64,000 nt of DNA from an uncultured bacterium (GCA_963726455.1 CAVSCK010000005.1:64973-128972); one strand, 5' to 3'. Counted from the stretch's first letter, positions 9,951 through 51,920 are shown. Numbers and translations are program-made. The notes: generated by a model not told the origin, from the letters alone.

Positions 9951-12872
9951 TCAGGGTTTACAAGGCGCCGGTCCACCGCTGAAGATGTAGGAAATCAGAT
10001 AGACGGCATCTGAGATATCAACCGAATGATCACAGTTGGCGTCACCGGCATCCAGCGGATTCGGCGCCGCGCCACCGGAGAAGATATAGCCGATAAGAAA
10101 GACCGCATCGGAGATGTCGATCCCGCCGCTACCGTCAGCATCACCGGGCACGAACAGCGGTCCTGCCGTGTACAAGTGGGCTGCCGCCCAACGTTTGGCC
10201 TTGACCATGTTACCCTTCAAATCTGCGAGTGTGCCGTCACGCACGGTTGACAGGGCGCTGTAAATGACGATTGTATCCTGTGGCCCGATGTTCCGATTGT
10301 TGATGAAGGTCATGGTGGCAAACTGGTCGGTGGGATTTGTCTCGGGCAAATAACCCGGATTCTGCATCAAGCCGTAAATCTGCACGGCAACGAAGCCGTT
10401 GGTGCCATAGATGTACTGAGAGGAACTGGCCGTAAAGGCACCATAAGGCACTTTGCTAGTGTCAATCACGCCGTCGGCATCGCTAATGCCAAGCAGTGCC
10501 TGTCCCGCAAACCGGCGCGAGCCATCGATACAGTCGAAGCCGCCGCCCTGCTGATATATCATCTTCGTACCGGCATCGAAGCCCCCGACATTTTCCTGAG
10601 GATTGCCGCCGCAGTCCCAGTCGATGGCATCACCGATGCCGATTCCCGTGTGCACGAGGGTATCGAACGAGGTGATTTCGACTCGCTGGATGACGAAGTT
10701 GCAGCTATCGGGATGCTTGGGCGCATACCACGATTTCTTGATTGCAAGGAATTGATCGAGGGTGACGAAAGTGCCGCTCCGGAAGACCTCGTAAGCGCCT
10801 GAATCCGCAGTCGGCGCCATCGGTTCACCGTGGCGAGGCGTGCGGTAGCTATTGCCGTAATACATGTTCCAGTTCGCGGCATACCATGGGCCATTTATGT
10901 AAGTGACCAGCAGCGTGCCGTCCCAAAGATAGTTGTTGACGCAATCGCCCTGACCAAGGTAATCAAGGGCAGCTCCGTACGTGCCTGCCTTGCCGAAATT
11001 GCCCAGATTATTTACGATCAATTTGGTGCAGGATGTGGCGACGGTATCATAGACTTGCACGTTGAAGAGTGCACAGGCGTCGCCAAAGCCATCCCCGTCG
11101 GAATCGGTTTGATCGGGATTGTATACATCGGGACAGTTGTCTATCTGGCACGTTGCTGAAGGATAACCGGGATTACCGAAGCCGTCGGCGTCGGGATCAA
11201 CGCAGTTGTCGCAGGCATCGCCGATGTTGTCATGGTCTATGTCGGCCTGATCAGGATTAGCGTAACCCGGGCAGTTGTCGCAAGCATCACCGGCACCATC
11301 TGCGTCACCGTCGGCCTGGTCGGGATTGGCAACCGCGGGGCAGTTGTCGGTGGCATCGGAAAAGCCATCGCCGTCTTTGTCGAAATCGACGTAGGCGTAC
11401 AGGCGGTCGCCACGGATTGAATCAACTCTGACTGTGATGCCGGTGGGACCATAATAGCCGGCGCTGCTGGGAAATGTAGTCGGACTGAAGGTCGACTGAC
11501 CGGGAACGTTATCGGAGAAGAGCGCGCCTTTGCGGGATTCGTAGGGGTACCACCACTGGGCCGTATCGCTTACGTGTCCACCGGGATTGTTATGATAGTC
11601 ATACGCTGGGTTGTAGCCGGCATCCTCGACCGCGACCGTGTAATGAGGATATGTTGGCGTTCCGTCGTTGATGCGGAAATAATCGGCTTTGAGCGAGTCA
11701 TGGACATGCGTTATTAGCAGCCCGCGATCGAGCGGATCGCAGCCAAGCGACAGGTCGGGATAGAAGTAACAACTGAAATCCGAATCAAACTTGTCGAACT
11801 GTGCCGTCGACTGAGGATTGCGATACTCCAGCATGAAGTATTCCCCCTGCGCCATGTTGATCGGCAGAATGTAATAGGAGCTGTCCTTCGTCGTCTCGCA
11901 GTTGCGAATCATGAGTGATGGATATTCTCGCTGCTCCAACACAGTCGGTGTAATCCAACCGGCCTCTTTCTTGGTCCAGCCGCAGTGATGCGACGGGATG
12001 ATGGACTTGATCGAGAGAATCCCGTAACCGCCATAACCCATTGTGCACCAGTCATAGACCGGATGATCGTTGTCGTCGTTCGGAGTAAAGAAAGTGGAGA
12101 CGGTGAGCTTCTCATCGTAATCGTACAAGTCGGGAACTCCCACGTTGTGTGAGAGCTCATGGCAGAACACTCTGATATAGTTCAAGGTATCAACGCCGGT
12201 AAAGTCGTAGGGGCTGTATGGGTCATGCAAAGGGCAGGTTTCCGGGCAGGTATTCACGCGCGGAAAGCGTTTGCCGTCAAACGGTCCATAGCCGGTACCG
12301 GGTGAGCCGACCTGGGCATATGACCAGATGTCCATCGGATTGTGCGAGTCCTCCTGGCCTCTGCCGGCGTGAATAAATGTGACGGCATCGACATCGCCGT
12401 CGTTGTTGCCGTCAAATTGCGAATAGTCAATTACGGGATTAAGTTCCGCCAAGAGTGAACCAAAGTTGACATAGCCATTGTAGCTGCCTTCGGTGTGCCA
12501 CTCAATCACCTGACCCGTTACAGTCAATTGACCGTATGACGCCTCATGAAAGTAGTCCGCTACGGAACCCATCGGCAACACATTGCGCGAAAAATAGAGC
12601 GTATCGAAGGCGCCGCGAGTCCAGGTGTGGGGGCGGTTGGTCCAGTCGATCAGAATTACGAGTACCTTGAGCGTGTCGCCCGTGAAACGAAATTCGTCCA
12701 TCGACCTTATTTCATCCGGAGTCAGCGTGGACGGGGGCATTTTACCGAATTGCCTCTCCATCACTTCATTGGGTACGTCGAGGATTCGCACCTTCGACAT
12801 GTCGAAGGCGAAGGATGTAGTAGCGACCAATAGACAAGCCAAGGCCACCAGCCCATTAACCATAGATCTCAT
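9951..12872 (-). CDS. secreted M6-family (immune inhibitor A-like) zinc metalloprotease with thrombospondin type-3-like repeats and C-terminal dockerin-like tandem module
   Basis: Signal peptide from ATG 12872 (AGAGGT upstream); HExxH site [19 protein letters not shown]; repeated DxDGDGxxDxxDNCP calcium-binding units; C-terminus [25 protein letters not shown]...[31 protein letters not shown]. Confidence 0.8.
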
Positions 12873-22077: not shown

Positions 22078-23076
22078 CTAAAGAATGATTGAGAGCAACA
22101 TGTAGGATGCGACGCCGAAGATTGCCGCACCGGGAATAGTGAAGAACCAAGCCAATACGATATTGCCGATTATCTTCCAGCGGAGATTGCCGAGTCGTCC
22201 GGCGATGGCGGTACCGGCGATAGAGCCGGTGGCGACTTGAGTCGTCGACTTGGGGATGCCGAGCAGGGCTGTTACCAAAATCACTGTCCCCGCCGATGCT
22301 TCGGCAGCGCAGCCGTCCAGAGGTTCGTGCAGCCTGGTCATCTTGTGTCCCATGGTCTTGATAATTCGCCAACCGCCTACCGAAGTCCCAAGTCCAATTG
22401 TGAATGCTGAAGCGATACGAACCCACAGGGGAACATGAAAGGTACTGATCGCTCCCGCAGACAAAAGCGCAATCGTCATTATACCCATGGCATTCTGCGC
22501 GTCGTTCATGCCATGAGCAAGCGACACATAGGCCGCGGAGAGGACCTGAAAGTGCTTGAAGACTTTAGCTGTCGCACGATACGGCAACTTCCAAGCCGCC
22601 CAGGAAAAGATGACTTTCAAGAGCAGGCCGCCGAGCAAGCCGATGAATGGCGCTACAATCATAGCGATACCGATTTTGAGAATTCCGGACATTACAAGTA
22701 TTTGGAAGTCGAAGTGATTTATGAACAGCCCCACTCCGATCAACCCGCCGACAAGGGCGTGAGTCGAGGAAGACGGCAAACCGAAATACCAGGTGAAGTA
22801 CCCCCAAAGCACCGCCCCCGTGACCGCCGCCAAAAGCAAAGGCAGCGTGACGACATTGCTTTCAATCACTCCCTTACCTATCGTGTAAGCCACGGCGGTA
22901 TTGAGCAGGCCACCGACGAAATTCAGGGTGCGTGCCATAATAATCGCCTTGCGGGGCGACATGGCGCGAGTTGCGATTGTCGTGGCGATGGCATTGGCGG
23001 CGTCATGGAAACCGTTGACGAAATCATACATCAATGAAGCCGCTATGATTAGAATCAGGAGAAGCTGATCAGACAT
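22078..23076 (-). CDS. pit: inorganic phosphate transporter, PiT family
   Basis: 332 aa polytopic protein with the duplicated PiT signature GFHDAANAIAT / GMNDAQNAMG. Confidence 0.9.
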   Translation of the reverse strand: MSDQLLLILIIAASLMYDFVNGFHDAANAIATTIATRAMSPRKAIIMARTLNFVGGLLNTAVAYTIGKGVIESNVVTLPLLLAAVTGAVLWGYFTWYFGLPSSSTHALVGGLIGVGLFINHFDFQILVMSGILKIGIAMIVAPFIGLLGGLLLKVIFSWAAWKLPYRATAKVFKHFQVLSAAYVSLAHGMNDAQNAMGIMTIALLSAGAISTFHVPLWVRIASAFTIGLGTSVGGWRIIKTMGHKMTRLHEPLDGCAAEASAGTVILVTALLGIPKSTTQVATGSIAGTAIAGRLGNLRWKIIGNIVLAWFFTIPGAAIFGVASYMLLSIIL

Positions 23077-23828
23077 TCTCGGCTACCAACCGTCTGAGAG
23101 TGCCGGTCAGTTCGGTGCAGGCGTCAATCGAGCGTTCGAGTTCCTCGTAGACCTGCCGCAGAATAAAGAATACGGCTGTGTGTCGCGTGTACTCAACATT
23201 GGCTTTGATAATTGGCAACATCTCTCCGGCGCTTTCGGAAGACTCGAATTGCTTGATACGGTTTTCCAGATTCTGCCGGTCGGCCCGGATCTCCTGAAAG
23301 CGACGACGCAGTCCCTCGTGATATATTTCATCCGCCTGTGTCTCGAGGTGGTCGACGGCGCGGAAATAGGGTTCGATCTTACGATCATGCGGCAAGCGAC
23401 TTGACCGCTTTGGCAATTTCCTCGCAGGCGCGCAGAATTAACGGCGCCAATTCACGCATTTCCTTGTCGCTGGTCGGGAAAGTCGTAGATGACATAGCGG
23501 TTGGCCGCATGGTTGACATGCTTCATAATGCGAAAGGCGTCGTCGTTAAACTGGCTGATCTCGGAGCGGTCGAACGGCGGTTGCTGCGAGCGATTAAGCA
23601 GGTCTTCGATCGATTCATTGATGCGATTACAGGTAGTCAGGCAGGTTTCGATCTTCTTGCCGATGACTTGTCGATCGCTCACCGGTGCGGCACAAAAGAT
23701 TCAACCAGCATGGACTTGCGTCGATCAGGTTGTCCATGGTCTCGTCGAAGAAGCTGATAGAATTCTTTGTCCCGAGGAGGAAGCAACCGGATATTCTTTA
23801 TACTCTTTAGAACATCTAACACACTCAT
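23069..23828 (-). pseudogene. DUF47-family (PhoU-related) phosphate transport regulator, split over three reading frames
   Basis: Three consecutive minus-strand ORF pieces (23679-23906, 23452-23682, 23069-23416) each resemble successive parts of a DUF47 protein; at least two frameshifts. Confidence 0.55.
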
Positions 23829-23951
23829 AATTTCGCCTTCATATTTGATGACCAATTGCTCTGTGGGAATGTTACATCCTGACGATCCGATTTCCCTCGA
23901 TATCAATCACTGTGGTCACCCGTGTCGAGCGAAGAACACCGACCGGTGCGA

Positions 23952-24717
23952 TCAATTCAGCGCCCGAAGATAGCAAAATTGTTGGACGCCAGTCGAACTC
24001 GATTTTGGATGCCAATCCGACAAGACAATCGACGGCGATTGGCAGGCGGTCAGCATAGGACGATTTGCCCCATGGCGGACAATTTCACCGTCGACCATGT
24101 AGATCACGTCTTCGGCAATGTTGGTGGTGTGGTCGGCGATGCGCTCGAGATTGCGGGAAACAGCGAGCATCTGAATGAGCGAGTCCATCCTTTCGGGAGT
24201 CTTGCGAATCTGTCCCTGCACGCACTCGTACATGCTGCGGTTGATCTCATCGACTTCGTCGTCGGCAGCCAGCACCGAATGCGCCAGCTGCCGAATCGAG
24301 ACTTACCAGCGAGTCGAGTGCAGTGTGCAACATGGACTCGACTTTTTCGGACATCTTGGGAAAGTCATACGGATGGACGACCGGCTCCTGCAGCGCCAGT
24401 GACACGGCGCGCTCGGCGATATTGGCGGAGAGATCACCGATCCGCTCCAGATCGTTGTTGATCTTCAGCACGGCGATAATAAACCGCAGATCGATCGCGA
24501 CCGGCTGATGCAACGCCAGAATCTTGAGGCAGTCCTCTTCCACTTCGACTTCCATGTTATCAATCAAGACGTCGTCGTCGACCACGCGGCGCGCCAGTTT
24601 TTCGTCACGGCTGACAATTGATTTCACGGCGCGGTGCAAAGAATCTTCGACCATGGCTCCGAGCGAAAGAATCTTGCGCTTAAGCCGATCAATTTCTCGT
24701 TGTAAATGCTGTGCCAT
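23952..24717 (-). pseudogene. phoU: phosphate signalling complex protein PhoU, interrupted by one frameshift
   Basis: N-terminal half in ORF 24247-24864 from MAQHLQREIDRLK; C-terminal half in ORF 23952-24275 (AADDEVDEINRSMYE...RIADHTTNIAEDVIYMVDGEIVRH); junction between 24247 and 24300. Confidence 0.75.
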
Positions 24718-24766
24718 CTTTCCTTCCCGTAGTTCCTGACGTCGATTGAATGACCTCAGACGATGA

Positions 24767-25591
24767 TCATCCGAACCGGCCGGTGACGTAGTCTTCGGTC
24801 TGCTTCTTGTCCGGCTTGGTGAATATCTTCGGCGTTTCGCCGAATTCCACCATGTGGCCTTCATAGAAGAAGGCCGTATAGTCCGAAATACGCGCCGCCT
24901 GCTGCATATTGTGCGTCACGATCACAATCGTGTATTGCTTTTTCAACTCGGCGATCAGGTCTTCGATCTTGGCGGTCGATATCGGATCGAGCGCCGATGC
25001 CGGTTCGTCCATCAGCAGCACTTCCGGCCGGACAGCCAACGCCCGCGCGATGCAGAGCCGCTGCTGCTGGCCGCCGGAGAGCATGTAGGCGCTGTTCTTG
25101 AGCTTGTCCTTAACCTCTTCCCACAGAAATGCCCTCTTGAGCGTGTCCTCCACCGCTTCACTGATCATCTGCTTGTCGTTGATGCCGTTAACTCGCAGAC
25201 CGTAGGCGACATTGTCGAAGATCGATTTCGGAAATGGGTTCGACTTCTGAAAGACCATGCCGACGCGCGTGCGCACAGTGGAAACATCCCTGATGTCCTG
25301 GTAAATATCGACGCCGTCGAGCTTGACGATGCCTTTCATCCGCGTTCCGGGAATGGTTTCGTTCATCCGATTGAGCGTGCGCAGAAATGTCGACTTGCCG
25401 CAGCCCGATGGGCCGATGAACGCCGTGACGCCGTTTTCCTCGATATCGAGAGACACGTTGTGCAATGCCTGGACGTTGCTGTAGAAGAAGTCCAGCTTGC
25501 GTATTTCGAATTTCACTCTGCCCGGTTGACGCGGCGGATGGCCGCGTGACACCACCGGACGTTCGCTCATTTCCAGTTCTGATTCAACCAC
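24767..25591 (-). CDS. pstB: phosphate ABC transporter ATP-binding protein
   Basis: Walker [13 protein letters not shown] signature LSGGQQQRL, and conserved PstB C-terminus. Confidence 0.95.
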
Positions 25592-26535
25592 TGATTCGCC
25601 TCGACCTAATTTTCGATCTGATCAGTATCGCTACAAAGTTCAGCAGAAATGTCAGCACCAGCAATACCAGCACCGTGCCATAGAGAATCGGTTTGGTCTT
25701 TTCGACATCTGGTGACTGGGTTGACATGACGTAGACATGATACCCCAGTTCCATGAACTGATCGTTGAGCGCCCGGGGTAGATACGGAAGATAGTAGGCG
25801 GCGCCCGTAAACATGATCGGCGCGACTTCGCCCGCGCCACGGCTGATTGCCAAGATCGCGCCGGTGAAGATGCCGGGGAGCGCCTGCGGAATTATCACTC
25901 GAATAATCGTCTGCAGTTTGGTCGCGCCCAGCGCATAGCTGGCGTCCTTGAGTTCGCGGGGAATTGCTCGCAGCGCTTCTTCTGTCGACACAATCACGAC
26001 CGGCAGACGTCAGCAGCGCGAGTGTCAGGGCCGCCCAGATTATCGCCGGTTGTCCCCAAACCGGTTTCTCCGCTCCCAGTAGTCCAGTGTCGATTCCATG
26101 TCCGATAAATCCGATGAAGAACCCCAGACCGAACAATCCGAACACGATTGACGGCACGCCGGCGAGATTGTTGATCGCGGTGCGAATCAGCCGCGTCGTG
26201 CGCGAGGTCGGGCTGGTGTATTCCGATAGGTAGATCGCCGTCAGTACGCCGACCGGAACACCGGTTATGACCATGAGCAGAACCAGGAACACGGTGCCAA
26301 AGATCGCCGGAAAGATACCGCCCGCTTCCATGCCGTCTTTCGGCGGCTGCGTGAGGAATTCCCAACTAATGATGCCGGTTCCGTGCAGCAATACATTGAA
26401 GAGTATAATGCCCAGCATCGCGACAATGATCAGCACCGCCGCCAGTGTCAGGCCTTGCGGAATCAGTCCGCGAGTTTTGGGACGAAATTGCAGTGGAGCC
26501 AGAGTCGGGGCGGTAGCAGTTGAAGGGTTGCTCAT
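25584..26535 (-). pseudogene. pstA: phosphate ABC transporter permease PstA, interrupted by one frameshift
   Basis: First ~178 aa of ORF 25606-26535 are PstA-like up to ...AALTLALLT, then nonsense; ORF 25584-25997 continues in another frame with IVSTEEALRAIPRELKDASYALGATKLQ; junction near 25997-26010. Confidence 0.8.
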
Positions 26536-27491
26536 GACGTCCTCCCCTGCAATCTGGTTTTGAGCCGTCCCAGGATGACTTCGCCGCCCAGATTAGTCAC
26601 GAACGTGAACAAGAACAGTACCGTGCCGATGAAGAAGAGCACAGAATAATGTGTGCTGCCGAAAACAACTTCCGCGAGTTCGGCAGCGATCGTCGCCGAA
26701 AGAGTGCGCGCCGAATCAAGGAAGCTCGCGGACACAATCGCGGCATTGCCGGATGCCATCAATACGATCATCGTCTCACCAATCGCTCGGCCAAAACCGA
26801 GCACGATTCCGGCGGCAATACCGGGAAGGGCCGCAGGCAACACCATCGTAAACGAAACCTGCCAGGGATTCGCTCCCAACGCTCGCGCGGCATCACGCAA
26901 CGATTGCGGCACCGAGGTCATCGCATCTTCGGCGACAGTGAAGACGATCGGAATGATCGCCAGACCGAGAGCAATGCCGGCATTTAGCACGTTCAGGCGA
27001 TAGGTCAAACCCAGTGTCTTCTGCAAGACGGTCGCCAAGACAATCAGCGCGAAGAAGCCCAATACCACCGAGGGAATGCCGGCGAGGAGTTCGATCACCG
27101 GTTTGATGATTTCCCGCATTCGTTTGGAGGCAAATTCCGCGGAGTAGATTGCAGCGCCGACAGCAAGCGGCGTCGCGAATAACATGGCGATGATTGCGGC
27201 CTTGATCGTGCCCAGCATCAGAGGCCAGAGCGAATACTTGGGCACTTCCGAATTCGGCTGCCAGCTCCATTTCGCGGGCTTGTCCTTCTGAAACTGCTGT
27301 TTGAACGTCATCTTGTCGAGACTGGCTTCCTGCTGAGCATCGGCTGACGTGAAAATCGGAGCGGCTTCCTTGAAGATGAAAATGAAGATTAGCAGTATCG
27401 CTATCAGCGCCACGAATGCGTTTACCGCAATGAACTTCTCACCGAGAAATTCCCGCCAACGCGATTTGGGCTTGAACTGATAAGGCGTCAT
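26532..27491 (-). CDS. pstC: phosphate ABC transporter permease
   Basis: 319 aa, six TM helices, permease core EAA-like loop; position between pstS and pstA. Confidence 0.9.
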   Translation of the reverse strand: MTPYQFKPKSRWREFLGEKFIAVNAFVALIAILLIFIFIFKEAAPIFTSADAQQEASLDKMTFKQQFQKDKPAKWSWQPNSEVPKYSLWPLMLGTIKAAIIAMLFATPLAVGAAIYSAEFASKRMREIIKPVIELLAGIPSVVLGFFALIVLATVLQKTLGLTYRLNVLNAGIALGLAIIPIVFTVAEDAMTSVPQSLRDAARALGANPWQVSFTMVLPAALPGIAAGIVLGFGRAIGETMIVLMASGNAAIVSASFLDSARTLSATIAAELAEVVFGSTHYSVLFFIGTVLFLFTFVTNLGGEVILGRLKTRLQGRTS

Positions 27492-27501
27492 ATTGCGATC
27501 C

Positions 27502-28326
27502 TCATTTCACCGGCAGCGGCACAAAGCCGGCCTTCTGTGCGAGGGCCTGGCCTTCAGACGACAAAACCCAATTCACGAAATCCCTAACTTCACCAGACGG
27601 GTCGCCATTGAGAAGAAAACAGAGGTCGCGAGCAATCGGATAGACACCGAGTGTTACATTTTCAACAGTCGGCGTCACGGGCTGCGCAGTGTCATTTTCG
27701 CTTATCGCTGCATACTTGATACCACTGGCCCAGGCAATGCCGCCATACCCGATACCGTTGGGATCGTGAGCGACTGCATGAACTACTGACGCCGTACCCG
27801 GCAACGGCTCACAGCGTTCGGCGAAATCCTCGCCGCCCAGGATGCGATCCCGAAAGAAAGTAAATGTGCCCGAATTGTTTTCGCGGCCGTAGAGGATGAT
27901 CGGATTGTCCTTGCCGCCAAGTTGGTTCCAGTTGTTGATGCTGTCGGTATAGATTTCGCGAAGCTGCTCGATTGTCAGATCACGAATCGGATTTTCTTTG
28001 TTGAGATAGACAGCAACGCCATCACGAGCAACCGCAAACCGCCGGAGATCGATTCCTTTCGCCGACATCATCTGTGTTTCCTGAGCAGACAGTTCGCGCG
28101 AGGTCATACAAATCTTGGTCGAACCGTTGACCAGCGCCGCGATTCCCGATGACGATCCGCCGCCGGAGACCTGAATCACTGTTTCTTTGTGATTCTTCAT
28201 GTAGTCCTCGGCCCAGCGCTGGCAGAGGCGAACCATGGTGTCCGAACCCTTAATAGTGATTTGCCCCGCGGATGCCATCTGAGACACGAGTAGAACACAC
28301 ACAGCGACAACAAGCACCCTCTTCAT
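27502..28326 (-). CDS. pstS: phosphate-binding periplasmic protein
   Basis: Signal peptide; PstS-like motifs (GSDTM, GGGSSSG, SRELS). Confidence 0.9.
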   Translation of the reverse strand: MKRVLVVAVCVLLVSQMASAGQITIKGSDTMVRLCQRWAEDYMKNHKETVIQVSGGGSSSGIAALVNGSTKICMTSRELSAQETQMMSAKGIDLRRFAVARDGVAVYLNKENPIRDLTIEQLREIYTDSINNWNQLGGKDNPIILYGRENNSGTFTFFRDRILGGEDFAERCEPLPGTASVVHAVAHDPNGIGYGGIAWASGIKYAAISENDTAQPVTPTVENVTLGVYPIARDLCFLLNGDPSGEVRDFVNWVLSSEGQALAQKAGFVPLPVK

Positions 28327-28423: not shown

Positions 28424-29800
28424 TTACTTCGATGGCAGATGGATTGTGAACGTGCTTCCCTGCCCCACTTTACTGTCTACGCTCAGCGTTCCGTTGTGTG
28501 CGATCACAATATGCTTTGATATCGCCAATCCGAGCCCGGTGCCGCCTTCGGCACGGCTGCGAGATTTGTCGACGCGGTAAAATCTTTCAAACAATCGCGT
28601 CAGATGTTCCGGTGCAATGCCACAACCCTGATCGCGGACGGCGATAGTTACGGAACTCTCGCCGCGTGCAGCGGCGACATCTATCCTTTTCCCCGGCTCA
28701 CTGTATTTCACCGCGTTATCAATCAGATTAATGACCGCCTGTTCAAGCAGCGGTTGATTTGCGCGCACGCGGAGATCTTCGGGACAGGACAAGGTAACGG
28801 AAATGTGCTTAGCGCTCGTGAGTGAATCACAGGCGGTAATGGCTGCCGCCAGAATGCTCCTTAGCCCGACCGGCTGCAGTACGATCTGGCCCCGTTCGGC
28901 ATCCTGTTCGATTCGTGACAGCCTGAGTAAGTCTTCGATTATGTTCTGCAACCGTGCCGCCTGCTTGCCGATGATTTCAAGAAACCGGCGCGACTCCACA
29001 GGGTTCTCCAGCGAACTGTCAAGCAAGGTCTCAATGTAGCCCTTGATCGAAGTGATCGGGGTTTTCAATTCGTGAGACACATTAGCGACAAATTCACGCC
29101 GCAGGTTTTCGAGTTTGCGTATGCGAGTGACATCATTGAGTACGATCAGTGCGCCGAGCCGTGCGCCAGAATTACTTCGCATGGCTGTGCCCGTCACCTG
29201 CAAGTATCGCTCGTCTCTGCCTGCCAGAATTATGTCTCCTTCTGCTGCCACATCCAGCGTCAGTGCCCGGCCTACCAATTTCTGTAGTTCGGCATGACGC
29301 ACCGTATCCTGAAGAGTGCGTCCGACGGTTGCCTTGAGATCGACATCGAACATCCGCGCAGCCGACTGATTGATGCTGACGATCTTTTCATCCGCGTCGA
29401 CAACCAGAACGCCTTCGATCATGTTCGCGGTGATCGTGTGGTATTCCTGGCTCTGCTGCGACAACACTCCGGAACGCGCGGCGAGCTGCTCAGCGATGCT
29501 ACTTAGCGAGTCCGCTACTTCATCCAGTTCCGAAATGCCCGAGTGCAAAGAGTAGGTGTCGTATTCGCCGTTGGCGATGTGTTTTGTCTTCTGCTTTAGC
29601 TGCGTTAACGAGCGCGATAGCCGGCGTGACACGATGATGCCGGTTACAATCGCGGTTGCCAGAACCAGGCAGAGAATGGTGACGAGCACGCTCAGTGAGA
29701 CGGGCGCGGATACTGCGACAATTACCGTTGCCGCTATCACGACCAGTGCGATCAGCAGAAACGGCCGCATAAATCGCCAGAACGTTCGATCGTGGAGCAT
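28424..29800 (-). CDS. phoR: phosphate regulon sensor histidine kinase
   Basis: 458 aa; two N-terminal TM helices, PAS-like region, HisKA H-box (VSHELKTPITSI) and HATPase_c domain; directly downstream of phoB. Confidence 0.85.
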   Translation of the reverse strand: MLHDRTFWRFMRPFLLIALVVIAATVIVAVSAPVSLSVLVTILCLVLATAIVTGIIVSRRLSRSLTQLKQKTKHIANGEYDTYSLHSGISELDEVADSLSSIAEQLAARSGVLSQQSQEYHTITANMIEGVLVVDADEKIVSINQSAARMFDVDLKATVGRTLQDTVRHAELQKLVGRALTLDVAAEGDIILAGRDERYLQVTGTAMRSNSGARLGALIVLNDVTRIRKLENLRREFVANVSHELKTPITSIKGYIETLLDSSLENPVESRRFLEIIGKQAARLQNIIEDLLRLSRIEQDAERGQIVLQPVGLRSILAAAITACDSLTSAKHISVTLSCPEDLRVRANQPLLEQAVINLIDNAVKYSEPGKRIDVAAARGESSVTIAVRDQGCGIAPEHLTRLFERFYRVDKSRSRAEGGTGLGLAISKHIVIAHNGTLSVDSKVGQGSTFTIHLPSK

Positions 29801-29802
29801 GG

Positions 29803-30489
29803 CTATTCCTTGAGCTTGTAGCCGACACCGCGGACGGTCTCGATAACCGCGCCCTGGATTCCCAGTTTGCGGCGCAAACCCACAATCTGCACGTCGACCG
29901 CGCGGTCGGTTACGATGGTCTCTTCACCATGGATTTCGTTGACGATTTGATAGCGGCTGAATACCCAGCCGGGATGGCGAGCGAGCAAATGCAGTATCTC
30001 AAATTCGGTCAGCGTCAACTCGACCGGTCTGCCCGCCAGCGTAACCTGATGACGTCCCGGATCAATCACTATGTCGTGGACTCTCAGCGTGGCGCCGTCC
30101 TTAACGTCCTTGCCTCCCTTGCGACGCAGGGCCGCGCGCACGCGCGCAATCAGGACTTTCGGGCTGAACGGCTTGGTGATGTAATCGTCCGCGCCAACTT
30201 CCAGGCCGGTGATGACATCGCTTTCTTCGCTCTTGGCGGTCAGCATGATTATCGGTATACGCTGAGTCTTCGAATCATTCTTGAGAATCTTGCAGACATC
30301 GAGGCCGTCGATTCCCGGCAGCATCAAATCGAGAATGATGAGATCAGGCAGATTATTGCGCGCTGCCTTCAAGGCCGCCTCACCGGTCGCGGCGCCGGCC
30401 ACACGATATCCCTCCTTGCCGAGGTTGAATTTGATAAGTTCGAGAATGTCTTCTTCATCCTCGACTACCAGAATCATTTCCTTAGCCAT
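29803..30489 (-). CDS. phoB: phosphate regulon response regulator (OmpR/PhoB family)
   Basis: Receiver domain (DLIILDLMLPGIDG) plus winged-helix output domain. Confidence 0.9.
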   Translation of the reverse strand: MAKEMILVVEDEEDILELIKFNLGKEGYRVAGAATGEAALKAARNNLPDLIILDLMLPGIDGLDVCKILKNDSKTQRIPIIMLTAKSEESDVITGLEVGADDYITKPFSPKVLIARVRAALRRKGGKDVKDGATLRVHDIVIDPGRHQVTLAGRPVELTLTEFEILHLLARHPGWVFSRYQIVNEIHGEETIVTDRAVDVQIVGLRRKLGIQGAVIETVRGVGYKLKE

Positions 30490-30659: not shown

Positions 30660-31715
30660 TTAGCAAATGCGCGGCAATTGCTCGCCGGAAAGCATATCAA
30701 CGATGCGGGTGGAACCGATCGCATTGGTCATCGTAACAAGGCCGGATTGATCCGCAGTCGTACTTCCGATGATGGCTGCGGCCGCGCTGACAGACTGAGA
30801 ACGCAGGGCCGACAGAGCGCGTTCAGCATCGCGCTCCGGCACAAACGCAACAAAGCGTCCTTCGTTGGCAACGTAGAGTGGATCGAGCCCGAGCAGCTCG
30901 CAAGCACTTCGTACCGGTTCACTGATCGTAATTGACTGCTCCTGAATGTGCACTCCGAGCTTGGCCGATTGCGCGATTTCATTCAGGGAGCTCGCCAGGC
31001 CGCCGCGGGTGAGATCGCGCAGACAGTGTACTGCAATTCCCGCAGCCAGAAGCGCCTGCACCGCATTGTGCAAAGGTGCACAATCGCTGGTGATTGTTGT
31101 CTCAAACTTCAGCCCCTCCCTCTGCGCCATGATCGCGATTCCATGCCGGCCTATGTCGCCGGAGAGAATTATGGCATCTCCCGCGCACACAGTTGCTGGA
31201 GCTATGCTCAGAGAATGTTCAATGATGCCGATTCCGGCTGTGTTGGTATAGATGCCGTCGCCTTTGCCGCGATCAACAACCTTGGTGTCACCGGTAACGA
31301 CCTGCACGTTTGACTCAGCAGCGCTGGCTTTGATGGACTGCATGACACGTTCAAGAGTCTCCACCGGCAGGCCTTCCTCTAGGATCAGCCCCAGACTCAG
31401 GTAAAGTGGTTTCGCGCCGGCCATCGCCAGATCATTGATCGTACCGTTGACCGCCAGTGTGCCGATATCACCGCCCGGGAAGAACAGCGGACTTACGACA
31501 TACGAATCCGTCGTGAATGCCAGCCGTTGCCCGCCGATTTCAAACACGCTCGCGTCATGGCACGATTGCAGCATCTTGTTGTCCAACGCGGGAAGAATGA
31601 CGTTGTCAAGCAACTGATGCATCAATCTGCCACCACCACCATGTGCCAGTAATATCTGTTCATAATTCGATAACGGCGTCGGGCACGAAAGTAATATGTT
31701 ATTATCATCCGGCAT
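30660..31715 (-). CDS. hypE: hydrogenase expression/formation protein HypE
   Basis: ATG 31715; AIR-synthase-like fold, conserved C-terminal ...PRIC. Confidence 0.9.
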
Positions 31716-31726
31716 GATGTGTCTGC

Positions 31727-32836
31727 CTAACCTTTCGTCTTGTTCTGAACCGTGATACCACGGTAACGGTAATAGGCAGCACAGGCGCCCTCGGAGGACA
31801 CCATAGTAGCACCGAGCGGATGTTCCGGCGTGCATTTGCTGCCGAACACGGGACAGTCATGCGGCTTCTTGATTCCTTGCAGGATTACGCCACTGATACA
31901 ATCTTTCGATTCCTCGACTTTGCGATCGGTCAATTTGAACCTGGTTTCGGCATCGTAGGCGCGGTATTCGCCACGCAATGCCAGGCCGCTGTTGCCGATC
32001 TCACCGATGCCCCGCCACTTGCGCGGGACGATTTCAAACACCTCTTTCAGCAACTTCTGCGCGGGAACATTGCCCTCGCGAGTCACCAAGCGACTGTATT
32101 GATTCTCCACTTCGCAACTTCCGGCTTCAAGTTGAGTGACGCACATCAGGATGCCCTGCAAGATATCGATTGGCTCGAAACCGGTGACGACAATTGGCAC
32201 GCGATACTTCATGGCAATCGGCTCGTACTCATGATAACCCATCACGGTACACACGTGCCCGGCGGCGAGAAATCCCTGCACTTGATTATTCGGCGATCCG
32301 AGTATCGCCTCGATTGCAGGCGGAACCAGAACTTGCGACACCAGAAGCGAGAAATTCTTCACGTTTCGTTGCTGCGCTTGCACGACTGTCATACCAATTG
32401 CGGGAGCGGTCGTTTCAAAACCGACGGCAAAGAAGACTACTTGTCTCTCCGGATTCTTTGTCGCTAACTCAAGCGCATCCAGCGGTGAATACACGACGCG
32501 CACGTCAGCACCCGCTGCCTTGACACTGAGCAAGTCACACCGTGATCCCGGTACGCGCAGCATATCTCCAAACGAACACAAGATCACTTCGGGCTGCGCC
32601 GCAATCTCAATCGCCTTGTCGATCAATTCAATGGGCGTCACACAGACCGGACAACCGGGTCCGTGAACAAGAGTAATCTGTGGCGGCAGTAATTCGTCAA
32701 TTCCGAAACGGACAATCGCGTGCGTCTGCCCGCCACATATTTCCATGATCGTCCAGGGTTTGGTGACGACGGCGGCGATTTGATCGGCCAATTTATGCGC
32801 TGAGGCGGCATCGCGATATTCATCAACGAATTTCAC
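31727..32836 (-). CDS. hypD: hydrogenase formation protein HypD
   Basis: 369 aa; motifs GPGCPVC and CTVMGY; C-terminal Cys cluster. Confidence 0.9.
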
Positions 32837-33087
32837 TGTGACTCCTCGCTGCGGGCGTCGGCTTCATCCATTTCTCGCAGATATTGAAACACTTTCTGCG
32901 CTTCGTCCTCGTCAATGATATTGAGCGCGAATCCGACATGGATCACCACGTAATCGCCAATCTTTACCTCCGGGACGTAACACAGATTCACATCTTTGAT
33001 CACGCCGCCGAAATCCACCCTGCCTGTCCGAAACACGGGATCATCGCCCGTAATGCTGATCACTTTTCCCGGAACTGCGAGACACAT
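32833..33087 (-). CDS. hypC: hydrogenase assembly chaperone HypC
   Basis: Starts MCLAVPGKV (conserved Cys2), ~84 aa. Confidence 0.85.
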
Positions 33088-33092
33088 TTGCG

Positions 33093-35420
33093 TTAATTCC
33101 TTCTTGTTGTTCGCGCTGCGGCCACAATCTGACCCAGTGCGATGCCGCCGTCGTTGGGTGGAATCCGCTGATGCCAATAGGGCTGGAATCCTTCGGCGCG
33201 CAGTCGTGCAATAACATGCTCAGTCAGATACCTGTTTTGAAAACTACCGCCGCTAATCACAATTCTCTGCTGCCCGAATTCTCTCGCTACCGCAATCATC
33301 ATTTCGACCAGTGCGTTGTGAAACTTCGCGGCAGGGACCGACACCGGTGTGCCGTTGTCCCTCTCGGCAAGAACGCTCTCGACGAGCGGTTGCCAGTCCA
33401 CAATGAATGTAGTCTCGTTCTTGACAATTTCAAACGGATAGGATTCATCCGTTTGCGCGTCACCGATTGCGAATTCCAGCGCCATTGCCGCCTCGCCCTC
33501 GAACGTAGCTCGTTGACAAAGTCCAAGCAAAGACGCAACGGCATCAAACAGTCGCCCGGCGCTTGATGTCAGAGGTGCGTTGAGTTGCCGGCTGAGCATA
33601 CCCCGCATTACCGAAAGTTCGGAACTGTTGAATACTATCGTCTTCAGGAGATCGCCCCTGTCGAACATCCGTTCTCCGTACAATTCAAACAACACTCCCA
33701 GCGCCGACCGGCGCGGTTCACGGATTGCGGAATCTCCGCCCGGCAATGGAAACGTTCTCAAATGTGCTACTCGCCTAAAATTCGTGTCGTTGATCTGCAG
33801 AAATTCTCCACCCCAGATTGACCCATCCGGGCCGAGACCGGTGCCATCCCAGGCGATACCCAACACCGGTGCTTCGACTTCATTGTCCGCCATGCAACTC
33901 AAGATATGTGCGTATTGATGCTGTACGGTTAGGACAGGAACCACATATTCGTGTGCCTTGCGAGTCGAGAGATAATCGGGGTGAAGATCACACGCGACAA
34001 CTTCGGGCGTGACGTCATATAAAGCAGGCAAATCTGTGAGCACATTAACGAAAGCCTCATAGGCCTCTGCCGTTTCCAAGTCTCCGATATGTTGGCTGAC
34101 GAAAACGTCCCGCCCCAGCGACAACGCCACGCTGTTCTTAAGCTGTGCTCCGACTGCGATGGCTGACGGCAAGGAATGACTCAGCGTTATCGGCAGTGGC
34201 GCGTACCCACGGGCGCGACGGGTAACCTGCTCGCGGCCTGCCACGATTCGCACGATTGAATCATCGACATGACGCCTGATCGGCCGGTCGTGCACCAGAA
34301 ACGAATCGGCAATCTCTGCAAGCCGACGCAGCGCCTCGAATTCGTCGGTGCATATTGGTTCTTCCGCCAAATTGGCGCTGGTTGCTACGACCGGAAATCC
34401 AAGCTCTTGCATCAACAAGTGGTGCAGTGGTGTGTAAGGCAGCATGACGCCCAGGTATGGATTGCCGGGTGCAACATCGGGGTCGACCAGAGCAGCGCCG
34501 CGTAGTCTGCGTAACAAAACGATCGGCGACTCAACTGAGGTCAGCGAACATTGTTCAATCGCGCTCAGTTCACATGCTTCTTCTACCGATTCCAGTGTCG
34601 GAAACATCAGGGCGAACGGTTTGGCGCTGCGATGCTTTCGTTCGCGCAGCCGCATTATCGCGTCGCGATTGCGCGCGTCGACCATCAAATGAAATCCGCC
34701 GAGGCCTTTAACCGCGACAATATCGCCCGCCTTGATAGCATCTGCGGCCGCCAGCAGTGCTTCATCCTTGCGTGCCTGAACTGCACCGCCACCGTCCCAC
34801 CATTCCAGTTGCGGGCCGCAGTCGGGACAGGCATTCGGTTGTGCATGGAAACGCCGGTCCGAAGGATTCTCGTACTCTTCCCGGCAGAGCTGACACATGA
34901 CGAACTTCTTCATCGTCGTGTTGGCCCGGTCATACGGCAGCGACTCAATAATCGTGTATCTCGGCCCGCAGTTGGTACAATTCGTGAACGGATAGCGAAA
35001 GCGGCGGTTGCTCGGATCACGAATATCGCCGAGGCAGTCGGGGCACGTGGCAATATCCGGCAAGACATAGGCCGACTTACCGCCAGTCGCCACGCTGGCG
35101 CGGATTTCGAAAACTGAATAACCAACGGGATCGAGTTGCGACACTTCGCAACTCTGCACAAAGGCGCGTGGCGGTAACTCCGATATCAGACGCTTGCGAA
35201 ACATATCCAGCGCTTCTTGTGACGCCTCGATTTCGATAATCACTCCCTGCGAAGTGTTGGTGACGTAACCCCGCAATTCCAGATCCTGCGCCAGCCGATA
35301 TACGAACGGCCGAAATCCGACGCCCTGCACGGCGCCACGAATAGCAAATCGCAGCCGCTGCTGCTCATACTTCGGTATTGACTGTGCGGATTTCGGAATC
35401 ATACTGTTCATGCGCGGCAA
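33093..35420 (-). CDS. hypF: carbamoyltransferase HypF
   Basis: 775 aa; acylphosphatase domain, two CxxC zinc fingers, YrdC and Kae1-like domains. Confidence 0.95.
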   Translation of the reverse strand: MPRMNSMIPKSAQSIPKYEQQRLRFAIRGAVQGVGFRPFVYRLAQDLELRGYVTNTSQGVIIEIEASQEALDMFRKRLISELPPRAFVQSCEVSQLDPVGYSVFEIRASVATGGKSAYVLPDIATCPDCLGDIRDPSNRRFRYPFTNCTNCGPRYTIIESLPYDRANTTMKKFVMCQLCREEYENPSDRRFHAQPNACPDCGPQLEWWDGGGAVQARKDEALLAAADAIKAGDIVAVKGLGGFHLMVDARNRDAIMRLRERKHRSAKPFALMFPTLESVEEACELSAIEQCSLTSVESPIVLLRRLRGAALVDPDVAPGNPYLGVMLPYTPLHHLLMQELGFPVVATSANLAEEPICTDEFEALRRLAEIADSFLVHDRPIRRHVDDSIVRIVAGREQVTRRARGYAPLPITLSHSLPSAIAVGAQLKNSVALSLGRDVFVSQHIGDLETAEAYEAFVNVLTDLPALYDVTPEVVACDLHPDYLSTRKAHEYVVPVLTVQHQYAHILSCMADNEVEAPVLGIAWDGTGLGPDGSIWGGEFLQINDTNFRRVAHLRTFPLPGGDSAIREPRRSALGVLFELYGERMFDRGDLLKTIVFNSSELSVMRGMLSRQLNAPLTSSAGRLFDAVASLLGLCQRATFEGEAAMALEFAIGDAQTDESYPFEIVKNETTFIVDWQPLVESVLAERDNGTPVSVPAAKFHNALVEMMIAVAREFGQQRIVISGGSFQNRYLTEHVIARLRAEGFQPYWHQRIPPNDGGIALGQIVAAARTTRRN

Positions 35421-35438
35421 TTGCGCCCGGAAAGAAGT

Positions 35439-35945
35439 TTAGACCGTCTCTGTGAACGCCATCTCGTTGAGATCGTTCATAACCCGCGCGACCACGTCGT
35501 TGACCGCACTCACCACCGATTGCGTCAGTCCGTTGCCTGCGGAAAAATCGGCCCCCTCGATACCGTAAACCACCAACCGTTCCGGCAATCGCCCGAGTGC
35601 GCGCGCCAACTCCACGGCCTCAGCGACACTGAAGGCATGCGTGGAGTAATTGAAGAAATCGCTCGGAATTGGAACCCGGGCGGCATCAAATCGATAGATG
35701 AGTCCCGGCGTTGACGACGATTGTGCTGCGTCTATGATGATAACTGTATCTGCTTCGCCAAAACGCTCCAACAGTGACACGCCCTCACCTGAATGGACGA
35801 CGGCGTTTACGCGCGGCAGTGTCAGCGCCGCGATTCGGTTCGCAACCGCAATACCGGCAGCGTCATCGTGTCGGAACTCGTTGCCGACCCCAATTACCAA
35901 AGCAGTGTTGCGCCGGACGGTCGAGTCGTCATCAGTCGCCGCCAT
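35439..35945 (-). CDS. hydrogenase maturation endopeptidase
   Basis: 168 aa; LVIGVGNEFRHDDAAG motif. Confidence 0.8.
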   Translation of the reverse strand: MAATDDDSTVRRNTALVIGVGNEFRHDDAAGIAVANRIAALTLPRVNAVVHSGEGVSLLERFGEADTVIIIDAAQSSSTPGLIYRFDAARVPIPSDFFNYSTHAFSVAEAVELARALGRLPERLVVYGIEGADFSAGNGLTQSVVSAVNDVVARVMNDLNEMAFTETV

Positions 35946-35951
35946 TTTGCA

Positions 35952-37244
35952 TCACCGCCTGTCGATCTTCAGTTTCAGGAAATGTGTCGCGCAGGAAATG
36001 CACGGATCATAGTTGCGCACCGCCTGCTCGCATTGCCAGGTCAGATTCTCGTCCGACAGATGGATATGCCGTGGCACGAATTCCGCCAGATCATTCTCGA
36101 TTGTCTTTTGGTTCTGCGATGTCGGCGGCACGATCTTGGCCTCGGTTATCTTGCCTTTTTCGTCGACACGATACCGATGATAGCAGATACCGCGGGGTGC
36201 TTCCGAGCAGCCGCATCCGACCCCGGCGCGTTTCTTAAATTCGACTGCCGGTTTCTCCGGCTTCTCATAATTTGCGATAATTCGTAATGCCTCATCACAG
36301 GCATAGACCGTCTCAATGCTGCGCACGATTATGCCTTTGAAGGGATTGCGACAGCTATTGCCCAGGCCGACCTCTCTGGCGACCTGCTGCGGCACCGGCG
36401 ACAGTCGGTCGAAATTGAGATTGAAGCGCGCCAACGGCCCCACGAAGTAAGCGCCACGCGCTCTGATTACGGAGTGTAGAGCGTGAGAATGCTTGACGTG
36501 CTCCTCCGCAAAATGCTGCTCGTACTCCTTGATCTCGATATCCAGCCCGCGATTCGACACCAGTCGTCCTTCGATGAGTGGATACTCATCCGGATGCCGC
36601 ATGGCGACGAATTCGTAGTCACGCTCAAAATCCGGAAACTTGAAGGTCGCCACCCATTTTGACGTTTCGATTGCGGCATCGCGAGCCCATTTGAGTTCCT
36701 CCGCGATCGAAGCCAATTGCGACTTTTCCGGCGCCTTGTAGAATCCGCCGACGCGCACGTTGATCGGATGAATTTCGCGTCCGCCAATCAGCGTCATAAG
36801 ATCATTCCCGCATTTCTTGAGGCGCAGACCCCGCTTGACGATGTCGGGATAATCCTTCGCCAGTTGAATGGCGTCGGGATAGCCAAGGAAATCAGGCGCG
36901 TGCAGCATGTAGATATGCAGCGCGTGGCTTTCGATCCACTCGCCGCAGTATATTAGGCGCCGCAGCGCGCGTAGTTGTCCATCGACCGTGACACCGAATA
37001 TCTGTTCCATCGCGCTCACCGCGCTCATTTGATAGGCAATCGGGCAGATTCCGCAGATGCGTGCGGCAATGTCGGGCGCTTCGGCATAATGACGGCCACG
37101 CATAAATGCCTCGAAGAAACGCGGCGGTTCGAAAATCTTCAGTTTCACGTCTTCCACGCGGTCGTCTTTGATCTTCACATAGAGCGATCCTTCGCCTTCG
37201 ACTCGCGCCAGATAATCGACCTTGATCGTTCTGCTATCTTTCAT
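35952..37244 (-). CDS. hydA: [NiFe]-hydrogenase large (alpha) subunit, group 3b-like
   Basis: N-terminal RICGICP and C-terminal DPCISCATH nickel-binding motifs; 430 aa. Confidence 0.93.
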
Positions 37245-38013
37245 GAGCTTCGCTCTCTTTCCGGAAGGTCTCCGAATAGGAGTTGTAACTCCGATACAGC
37301 CGCACGAGATAATCTTCGTTGACGCCGATTTTGCTGAATTGCTCGCTCATCGACATGGTATTCGGGGTCTCTTTCGGTCCGAAACAACCGTAGCAGCCAC
37401 GGCTGAATGACGGGCAGATGGCGCCGCAACCGGCCTGCGTCACCGGTCCCATGCAGGGTTTCCCCTGCGCCACCATCACACAAGGCGTGCCTTTCAATTT
37501 GCATTGCAGGCAGACGGAATGCGGCGGCGTGTTCGGCTTGCGGCCGTTGAGGAAAGCGCTGAGCACTTCCACCAACTGCGCTTTGTTGATCGGGCAGCCA
37601 CGCAATTCGAAATCGACCAGCACGTGGTAGCCGATCGGAGTTGACTTGTGCAGCGTCTCGATGTACTGCGGCGACGCATAGACGTAATTCGCGTAATCCA
37701 TGACGTTCGCAAAATTGCGAAGCCCCTGAATTCCTCCCGCCGTGGCACAGGCGCCAATCGTGATTAAGAGCTTTGACATCTTGCGCACTTTCTGAATGCG
37801 CTCGGCATCGTGCGAGGTCGTGATCGAGCCTTCGACCAGCGATATATCGTAGGGTCCCTTGACCAAAGCGCGCGTCGCCTCCGGGAAATTGGCGATCTCC
37901 ACCGCATCGGCGATGGCCAGTAGCTCATTTTCGCAATCGAGCAGACTCAGTTGACAGCCGTCACAAGACGCAAATTTCCAGACTGCCACTTTCGGTTTGG
38001 TTTTGGTTGCCAT
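37234..38013 (-). CDS. hydD: [NiFe]-hydrogenase small (delta) subunit
   Basis: ATG 38013; FASCDGCQ and C-terminal Cys clusters of the FeS-carrying small subunit. Confidence 0.88.
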
Positions 38014-38014
38014 A

Positions 38015-38884
38015 TCAGATTTCCCGCCTTCCCAGCAATTCAATTACCTTATCGTAACTGAACACCGGCCCGTCCTTGCAGACGAAGGTCGGCCCGAACT
38101 GGCAATGTCCACACAGCCCGACGCCACACTTCATATTTCGCTCCATCGATACGTAGATTCGTTCCAGCCCGAGGTCCTGCTTGATCAAACCCATCGCCAC
38201 GAAGCGCATCATGATTTCCGGGCCGCAAATCATCGCCGTGGTGTTTTCGGGATCGAAAGCCGCCTTCCTGAGCAGTGAGGTCACGACGCCGACATTGCCC
38301 CGCCAGCCGCTCGATGCGCGGTCGACGGTGACGTGTACTTCCAGGTCAAAGCGGGAGCGCCACTTTTCCAGTTCCGTGACATAGAGCATGTCATCCGGCG
38401 TTCTGGTGCCGTACAGCAGGAAAACCCGGTTGTATTTTTTGCGCTCGGCCAGAACCTGATAGACTACCGGCCGCAAAGGCGCCAGTCCAATACCGCCCGC
38501 GATTATCAGTACATCCCCACCGGCTGCCTGTGTCACCGGCCAGGCGGCGCCAAAGGGACCGCGCACGCCGATGGTGTCACCGGCCTTTAGCTTCGCCATC
38601 GCTTTAGTGACCGAACCGACGGCACGGATTGTATGAATCAAGGTTGCCGGCTTGGTCGGATCGCCGCTGATCGAGATTGCCGCTTCGCCAACGCCGAACT
38701 TGTATAGCATATTGAATTGCCCCGCGACGAATTTATGTTCTGCCGTTCCGTCAACGGGTTTGAGTTCCAGAGTGAACGTATCGTGTGTCTCTTTGCGATA
38801 CTTTTCGATGCGATACGTCCTCGGCAGCATCGAGTTGCTGCGGCCTGCCGGTGTTGAGGCCTTAGTTTCAAGCACGGGTTCCAT
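38015..38884 (-). CDS. hydG: hydrogenase gamma subunit (FAD/NAD-binding with C-terminal 2Fe-2S)
   Basis: Ferredoxin-reductase-like fold; C-terminal [10 protein letters not shown]. Confidence 0.8.
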
Positions 38885-39329
38885 ATATGTCCAACAATTG
38901 AAGTCTGGTTGCCGACAGGCGCTCGGCGATAATCTTCACGAAGCGCTTGAGTAACTCATATCCGAGGTCATGGTCTTCATCCAGCTTGCTGCGCAGGCAC
39001 AAGGCATCGAATCGAATTGCACGTGTGAGTTCCACCGCCCGCGCGTCGAAGTGCGCCCGATACGGAGGTAGCAGCCACGACCAGCCGGTGACGTCGCCGT
39101 CCTCCAAAGTTTCGACGGTTATCGGACCGTGCGTAGGGCTGAATAGCTCCAGCGCGACTTTGCCTTGACGAATGATGTAAAATTCGGATGCTTCCTGACC
39201 TTCGCGGGAAATAAACTCGCCGGCATCAAACTTGACATTCGAGGCGCAGCCCAGGAGCAAATGCAATTGCTCATGGGGCAAGCCCTTAAAGAACGGATGT
39301 GCCGCCAGTATCGGTTCCAATGTCTCCAT
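38868..39329 (-). CDS. cyclic nucleotide-binding domain protein (stand-alone, no HTH)
   Basis: 153 aa; cNMP-binding beta-roll (FISREGQEASEFYIIRQGKV); sits between the beta and gamma subunit genes and overlaps the gamma start. Confidence 0.75.
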   Translation of the reverse strand: METLEPILAAHPFFKGLPHEQLHLLLGCASNVKFDAGEFISREGQEASEFYIIRQGKVALELFSPTHGPITVETLEDGDVTGWSWLLPPYRAHFDARAVELTRAIRFDALCLRSKLDEDHDLGYELLKRFVKIIAERLSATRLQLLDIYGTRA

Positions 39330-39330
39330 C

Positions 39331-51058: not shown

Positions 51059-51920
51059 TCAGCACCCCGCACATGGCGCCGCGCCACCACTGAAGATGTA
51101 TTGGATCAAGTACACCGCATCCGAGATGTCGGCTGTATGATCGCAGTTGGCGTCTCCCGCCTCTGCCGGGTTGGGCGCCGGACCACCGGCGAAGATGTAA
51201 GCTATCAAATAGACAGCGTCCGAGATGTCGACGCTGCCGCTGTGGTCGGCATCCCCGCAAACGTAAGGCGGATCGACGACTGAAAGAGTGAGTGAGACCG
51301 TGTCTGTCAACGCCGGGACGCTGCCGTCCTGCAGAGCAATCGAGAAATAGAAAGTAGATTTATAGGTCGGTGTACCGGTGATCGTACCGGTCAAACCATC
51401 ATTAAACGTGAGGCCGTATGGCAAATCCCCGCCTACAAAAGTCCAGTTATATGGGGGCGTGCCGCCGGCGTGCAGAAACTGGTAGGTATATGGCTTGTGG
51501 TAGTAGGCATTGGATAATATAGGATGCAGGTTCAGTTCGGGCTCGATGTGTACTGAGTCGTCGCACCAGTCGCCGAGTCCGTCCGCATTTGAGTCCCACT
51601 GATCGTTGTTCGCCAAAAGCGGGCAATTATCGCAGGCGTCGCCGAGGCTATCGGCATCGCTGTTCTCCTGACCCGGATTGACGGCGTACTTGCAATTGTC
51701 GGCGGCGTTAGGCAATCCGTCGTTGTCAATATCGGGATCGCATGCATCGCCCAGGCCGTCGCCGTCGACGTCGTTCTGAGTCGCATTGACCACAGTCGGG
51801 CAGTTGTCACAGGCATCGCCGATACCGTCATTATCGGTATCGAGCTGGTTGCTGTTGGCCAGACTCGGGCAATTGTCAACCGTATCAATAACCCCGTCGG
51901 CATCGAAATCGCCCACAACG
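51059..51920. repeat. copy B of the ~850-bp near-identical 3' coding module
   Basis: See copy A at 48164-49020. Confidence 0.8.

Follow-up and report, generated by a model that had tools for sequence, protein, structure and literature searches.

Small indels in pstA, phoU and a DUF47 gene of a Zixibacteria-like assembly: probable indel errors over an ordinary Pho regulon

Has an uncultured bacterium lost its high-affinity phosphate uptake system together with the regulators of phosphate transport, or does its assembled genome carry a cluster of small indel errors? The question is raised by a stretch of 64,000 nucleotides (GCA_963726455.1 CAVSCK010000005.1:64973-128972; the whole of it is called the window here, and positions are counted from its first letter), in which a block of phosphate genes contains broken copies of pstA, phoU and a gene of the DUF47 family. 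An earlier note on this DNA had offered both answers, either decay of Pst and PhoU while the transporter Pit is kept, or indel errors. Our analysis points to the second: errors of sequencing or assembly most likely produced the frameshifts, and beneath them the Pho regulon and the PitR-Pit pair would be normal and functional, a reading to which we would give a probability of about 0.68 from the sequence in hand. Five indels in the 756-nt DUF47 gene, without substitution decay, fit a local low-quality assembly patch and do not fit decay of Pst and PhoU with Pit retained.

Lesions in the phosphate block and across the window

As given, pstA does not form an uninterrupted frame, its two halves being read in different frames. 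The nucleotide alignment with three intact relatives contained a single gap column among 951 aligned columns, and tblastn with intact relatives placed residues 1-176 at 26535-26008 and residues 177-315, one frame on, at 26006-25590, so that the residues run on across the junction without loss. One extra base at 26008 thus accounts for the junction that the earlier note had put at about 25997-26010. It falls inside an invariant motif, between ALLT and LPVVIV, where the junction residues are conserved in 116-119 of 119 homologues. When the extra base was removed, PstA came to 316 amino acids, the same length as in its closest relatives, and the repaired protein scored 261.7 bits against TIGR00974 (cut-off 193.45) over profile positions 7-271 of 272.

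The frame of phoU is also interrupted, with an extra base inside the junction reported earlier (about 24247-24300) and the usual stop missed. Residues 1-142 of the homologues corresponded to 24717-24292 and residues 143-218 to 24290-24063 in the next frame, leaving the base at 24291 over. Repaired PhoU scored 212.6 bits against TIGR02135 (cut-off 130.25), the end of the profile being reached at residue 213, and PF01895 was matched in two stretches (E = 1.4e-45), as befits a protein with two PhoU domains. The open reading frame (ORF) runs on for about 36 amino acids past the usual end near 24060 (23952-24063): 12 relatives stop 2-15 residues after an 'RH' motif, and the window product stops 40 residues after it. 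The TGAC stop context of the relatives is present, one base out of frame, and to judge from it this C-terminal read-through may hide a ninth lesion of the window.

In the DUF47 gene the damage is multiple. The gene measures 760 nt, as against 756 nt in four intact relatives, and the nucleotide alignment resolved this into five lesions with no other length difference (Table 1). The earlier description of a gene broken across three frames therefore stands, but the lesions had been under-counted, there being five rather than two. Repair of the third lesion as a 2-nt insertion gave a product of 251 amino acids, the length of the homologues. The repaired protein contained a single PF01865 domain (28.9 bits, gathering cut-off 24.4), the assignment that is also precomputed for most of 93 DUF47 homologues, and it had no match among the NCBIfam models. 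The gene identifications made previously were right, with repaired PstA passing TIGR00974, PhoU TIGR02135 and the third gene PF01865.

An eighth lesion, which the earlier note had missed, as it had the phoU read-through and the strong clustering described below, lies 33 kb from the block in a gene unrelated to phosphate uptake, for an HtrA/DegQ-like serine protease. Fragment 59637-59116 matched Trypsin_2 profile positions 1-56 and fragment 59174-58113 matched positions 57-144 plus PDZ domains; after deletion of one T at about 59151, the protease gave an unbroken match to positions 1-144. When the entire window was scanned for reading frame by codon usage, same-strand switches appeared only at phoU, at pstA and at 59138/59161, and in the DUF47 stretch no frame scored consistently. 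Other candidate frameshifts were rejected. The overlapping same-strand ORF pairs at 5.7-9.7 kb, 37.2-40.5 kb and 0.2-1.1 kb and the gaps near 45.6, 50.8 and 53.6 kb proved on inspection to be ordinary adjacent genes, gene boundaries or small genes, among them YajC/Def, L33 and hydrogenase subunits.

Table 1 Genes of the phosphate block, the split protease gene and the individual lesions, in window coordinates
Feature	Position	Strand	Remarks
phoB	29803-30489	-	intact
phoR	28424-29800	-	intact
pstS	27502-28326	-	intact, 274 aa
pstC	26532-27491	-	intact, 319 aa
pstA, phosphate ABC transporter permease	25584-26535	-	split: ORFs 26535-25606 and 25997-25584
pstB	24767-25591	-	intact, 274 aa; TIGR00972 403 bits
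phoU, phosphate signalling complex protein	23952-24717	-	N-terminal frame from 24717, C-terminal frame from 24290
DUF47 / PhoU_div (PitR-type) gene	23069-23828	-	760 nt, broken five times
pit, PHO4-family phosphate transporter	22078-23076	-	intact, 332 aa; PF01384 E = 7e-84
HtrA/DegQ-like serine protease (Trypsin_2 + PDZ)	58113-59637	-	split by +1, GCGGTC[T]CTGAAG, at about 59151
pstA lesion, +1	26007-26008	-	extra G at 26008: window GCTGAC[G]TCTGCC, relatives GCTGAC-TCTGCC
phoU lesion, +1	24291	-	GATTCG[G]CAGCTG
Possible further phoU 3' lesion	24045-24063	-	TGAC stop context of relatives, one base out of frame
DUF47 lesion 1, +1 (T to TT)	23751-23752	-	window AGCT[T]CTTCG
DUF47 lesion 2, -1 (TT to T)	23713-23714	-	window AGT-CCATG, relatives AGTTCCATG
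DUF47 lesion 3, +2	23689-23697	-	at or adjoining a T4 run (TCTTTTGTGCC)
DUF47 lesion 4, +1 (G)	23475	-	window TTTCCC[G]ACCAGC
DUF47 lesion 5, +1 (T to TT)	23394-23395	-	window TCGCT[T]GCCGCA

In total, the window contains eight, possibly nine, small indels, and they are strongly clustered: 2.6 kb of the 64 kb hold seven of the eight, and 360 bp hold five. Under uniform placement, clustering of this degree has a probability of the order of 1e-7 by a hand estimate; for five of seven lesions to share 360 bp in the pst-DUF47 block of 5.3 kb, the hand estimate is about 2e-3. We read the lesions as residual small-indel errors of the assembly, gathered mostly in a low-quality patch of about 0.9 kb over the 3' half of phoU and the DUF47 gene (24291-23394), with sporadic single errors outside it at pstA 26008 and htrA 59151. 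The patch might stem from long reads of low coverage or poor polishing, or from a gap that was closed with error-prone reads.

Constraint on the repaired genes and direction of the lesions

A decaying pseudogene would combine a disrupted frame with relaxed constraint. The disrupted frame was found here, whereas relaxed constraint was not, whether in conserved residues, in stop codons or in branch length. For DUF47, columns were counted as conserved at thresholds of >=95% and >=80% among 89 homologues. Repaired DUF47 (251/252 amino acids) kept 64 of 64 columns at >=95% and 98 of 101 at >=80%; intact DUF47 homologues miss on average 0.8 and 5.7 columns, respectively, so that the window protein does better than the average among them. 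Repaired PstA kept all 153 of its 153 highly conserved columns. There were no in-frame stop codons in the restored frames. The neighbor-joining terminal branch of DUF47 was 0.063, compared with 0.005-0.075 for its nine closest homologues, and that of PstA (0.069) was within the range of intact relatives. When 15, 25 or 50 random substitutions were simulated in DUF47, the 64 columns remained untouched with P = 0.04, 0.006 and <1e-4, respectively. In studies of mutation accumulation and of pseudogenes, each small indel is accompanied by roughly 3-10 substitutions; with neutral accumulation of five DUF47 indels, several-fold more substitutions would be expected. A dN/dS analysis against the related loci L082 and L081 was set aside, as synonymous sites are saturated at the 72-80% nucleotide identity involved.

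These results bear directly on the chief alternative, a real and very recent inactivation, too young to have gathered substitutions, in which PhoU was lost with a compensating lesion in PstA (or the reverse) and the PitR-type regulator was lost as well, leaving Pit unregulated. We consider this unlikely, if still to be reckoned with. Five indels in 756 nt with 0 of 64 conserved columns changed, no stop codons and a normal branch would be very unlikely under neutrality, and four further DUF47 indels would have to follow the first killing frameshift before any detectable substitution. Recent inactivation has most room where a gene carries a single lesion, in pstA and phoU, and there it is also coherent as biology, since loss of phoU selects for compensatory pst or phoBR mutations in Escherichia coli (PMC13170248). 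Several of the lesions, moreover, are length changes in short homopolymers, which are the commonest natural type of indel as well.

The direction of the lesions provides a further test. Of the eight events, all but one are insertions. Counts in bacterial pseudogenes give a ratio of 0.76 insertions to each deletion (PMC6054270), and under this ratio at least seven insertions in eight events have a binomial probability of about 0.014 (computed by hand), so the bias of 7 to 1 runs counter to the known deletion bias. Nor do the lesions follow function, because pstS, pstC and pstB, which would be equally dispensable if pstA were dead, have none, and the affected genes include the unrelated HtrA-like protease. 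The window does resemble known frameshift pseudogenes, among them those in which pst mutations compensate for phoU loss, in that linked genes are disrupted and in that joint phoU and pst lesions have a precedent in E. coli, but it differs from them in showing no substitution decay, no deletion bias and no lesion in the other pst genes. The proposal of decay in Pst and PhoU with retention of Pit thus found no support.

The resemblance to residual indels in long-read, hybrid or low-coverage metagenome assemblies is closer. The lesions are clean changes of 1-2 nt, several of them at short homopolymers; they are clustered locally; they extend beyond any set of functionally related or dispensable genes; and minimal edits of 1-2 nt restore homologue length and full conservation to proteins that are otherwise perfect. 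Of the two answers given earlier, that of indel errors is therefore the better supported.

Relatives, database searches and the weight of the rival readings

The window belongs to a Zixibacteria-like genome, the top relatives of its PstC being Candidatus Zixiibacteriota metagenome-assembled genomes (MAGs) at 70-77% amino-acid identity. Comparison with related genomes, which the earlier note had called for, gave uninterrupted genes. DUF47 and PstA were intact in all relatives retrieved (the 89 and 119 homologues mentioned above), and the loci examined in L082, L083, the JGI 3300075153 contig, L085 and L086 carried uninterrupted homologues of the broken genes. The gene order of the block is shared with L082 (JGI 3300028916) and with the 13.8-kb contig of JGI 3300075153; pstA, phoU and the DUF47 gene are intact in both, as is every other gene of the block in the contig, and the synteny of the block also matches that of the Zixibacteria relative L083. 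Aligned with the syntenic L082, the window genes pstS, pstC, pstB, phoR, phoB, pit, prs and hypC/D/E each gave one full-length segment. The six phosphate genes among these had been called intact before, and all of them are indeed uninterrupted.

The same comparison disposes of programmed ribosomal frameshifting or transcriptional slippage. The downstream frames are open and conserved, as such a mechanism would require, and nothing else speaks for it. Programmed sites are conserved, whereas 0 of roughly 200 relatives are frameshifted at any of the sites; the eight sites differ in context and are mixed in direction (+1, -1 and +2), with no common slippery motif and no stimulatory stop codon. Inspection of the eight sites by eye likewise gave no shared motif of another kind, such as a methylation motif. 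We regard this explanation as effectively excluded.

Searches for the same population returned little. PstC, PhoB, PstB and the product of the frameshifted pstA had no match when looked up as exact proteins. The best PstC in a scan of GTDB species representatives had 77% identity, the best hits in protein searches had 84% (DUF47) and 89% (PstA), and a Pit-based metagenome scan reached 91%. A same-species copy was thus not found in the searchable collections by exact-protein, GTDB, protein and metagenome searches, with the exception of the exact 332-amino-acid Pit, which was present on a 1288-bp Logan contig from the independent public run ERR12037368, probably of the same population. The independent assembly of an intact Pit fits recent inactivation, in which Pit would be spared. 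The insertion-bearing pstA sequence, by contrast, was seen in no other assembly, a 24-mer across it having 0 matches in JGI metagenomes, and this speaks against that alternative.

The Logan contig begins in the 3' end of the DUF47 gene, 19 bp before pit starts. Such a break would suit a particular form of artefact, triggered by microdiversity at the locus, in which reads of two or more co-occurring strains were collapsed into a mosaic consensus with spurious indels; the tight clustering of the lesions is in keeping with it, as is the variable context of DUF47-pit among close relatives, which marks the junction as prone to rearrangement. The break may, however, merely reflect low coverage, and the repaired genes show neither a mosaic substitution pattern nor unusual divergence. 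Strain mixing, which sequence alone does not separate from plain low-coverage error, seems to us very improbable as the specific cause.

Indel errors do occur in comparable source material, namely other MAGs of this phylum. In L081 (ENA ERZ25039554 contig_34094), hypD, hypE, lon and purA are split, and in both L081 and L078 (the MFD00905 MAG) many genes are in two or three pieces (hypD, hypE, lon, purA, pstA/pstB), a pattern typical of indel-rich long-read assemblies and a sign that such errors are common there. L078 and L081 resemble the window at a higher density of errors; the window differs in that its errors would have to be patchy in an otherwise clean 64 kb.

Several observations weigh against indel errors as the explanation. 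The technical cause that we infer is read from sequence signatures, not from read depth or quality. The rest of the window looks clean, which excludes a generally error-prone assembly and obliges us to assume a local cause, and around the patch only chance-level short matches were found in place of repeats or compositional breaks that would mark an assembly joint. Three phosphate genes with linked functions share seven of the eight lesions between them, in a span of 2.6 kb, as recent inactivation would have it. The conservation test is strong only for DUF47; it has little power for the single pstA, phoU and htrA lesions, because one very recent frameshift needs no accompanying substitutions, and a biological origin for the phoU and pstA pair is coherent. 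Phosphate-gene lesions, real or not, also occur in the lineage: pit of L082 (JGI 3300028916 Ga0310376_1001503), the closest relative with the same synteny, is frameshifted within 10749-11747, with residues 1-190 in one frame and residues 194-322 in another, near the conserved HGMNDAQNAMG motif. If all lesions were nevertheless real, the organism would have undergone a very recent joint knockout of PhoU, PstA and the PitR-type regulator, with unregulated Pit as its sole phosphate importer; it would present a natural phoU/pst compensatory pair, along with a burst of insertions in one 400-bp stretch, for example through localised error-prone repair. We find this full scenario doubtful.

Gene layout, the DUF47-pit pair and what the lesions mean

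Apart from the lesions, the block is an ordinary Pho regulon, consisting of phoB-phoR, pstSCAB-phoU and then the DUF47/PitR-type gene and pit (Table 1), with hypF/C/D/E on its upstream side and prs and L25 on its downstream side. PstB, PstC and PstS pass the NCBIfam models TIGR00972, TIGR02138 and TIGR02136, respectively. Gene order and content are identical to those of the canonical phoBR-pstSCAB-phoU locus of the E. coli type, from which the window differs by a +1 insertion in each of pstA and phoU and by the read-through of phoU. Directly upstream of the block lies a large [NiFe]-hydrogenase cluster (30660-40530, minus strand), all of whose genes appear intact; it comprises hypE, hypD, hypC, hypF, a putative maturation protease, large and small subunits, an FAD/NAD-binding subunit, a cNMP-binding protein and an Fe-S subunit.

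The DUF47 gene overlaps the start of pit by 8 nt, and the pairing of the two genes recurs in L081, L082, L085, L086, L095, L098 and L106. PitR of Staphylococcus aureus is a single-domain PF01865 protein that acts with its cognate Pit, and it alone has been shown to regulate phosphate homeostasis jointly with the transporter (PMC13170248). The window pair is like S. aureus PitR-PitA (PMC13170248) in having a single PF01865 domain directly upstream of a PHO4-family transporter and overlapping its start, and it differs in that its DUF47 protein is a 251-residue Zixibacteria-type variant with a weak Pfam score and five indels. By analogy, the DUF47 gene would encode a PitR-type regulator translationally coupled to pit, with a predicted regulatory role.

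Across the relatives, DUF47 and pit behave as a movable module of two genes, which comes after pst-phoU in the window, in L082 and in JGI 3300075153 and directly after hypE in L081. In L083 it is not downstream of phoU and is located elsewhere in the genome, as it is in L085 and L086; for the latter two, the retrieved sequence on either side of DUF47-pit showed neither pst genes nor phoU.

In a separate observation, at least five large, apparently secreted proteins of the window were seen to share a C-terminal domain of about 60 amino acids, with a motif that opens with D(A/V) and continues for 15 residues not shown here. The domain is found at 9957-10145, 46048-46233, about 51059-51120, 53823-54008 and 63528-63716, all on the minus strand, and Dockerin_1 is matched weakly by a related L083 protein. 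A role in sorting or anchoring, specific to the lineage, may be supposed for it.

Neither reading makes the finding a new one, and its main value is as a quality flag for users of this assembly, who should repair or mask the affected genes and expect further indels elsewhere. If the lesions were real, they would show, on a modest scale, how regulators of phosphate transport can be lost together in nature, still a case of a known kind. Taken at face value, the sequence would cause high-affinity phosphate uptake, PhoU and a PitR-type regulator to be recorded as absent from this genome, and would thereby lead to a wrong metabolic inference for the lineage.

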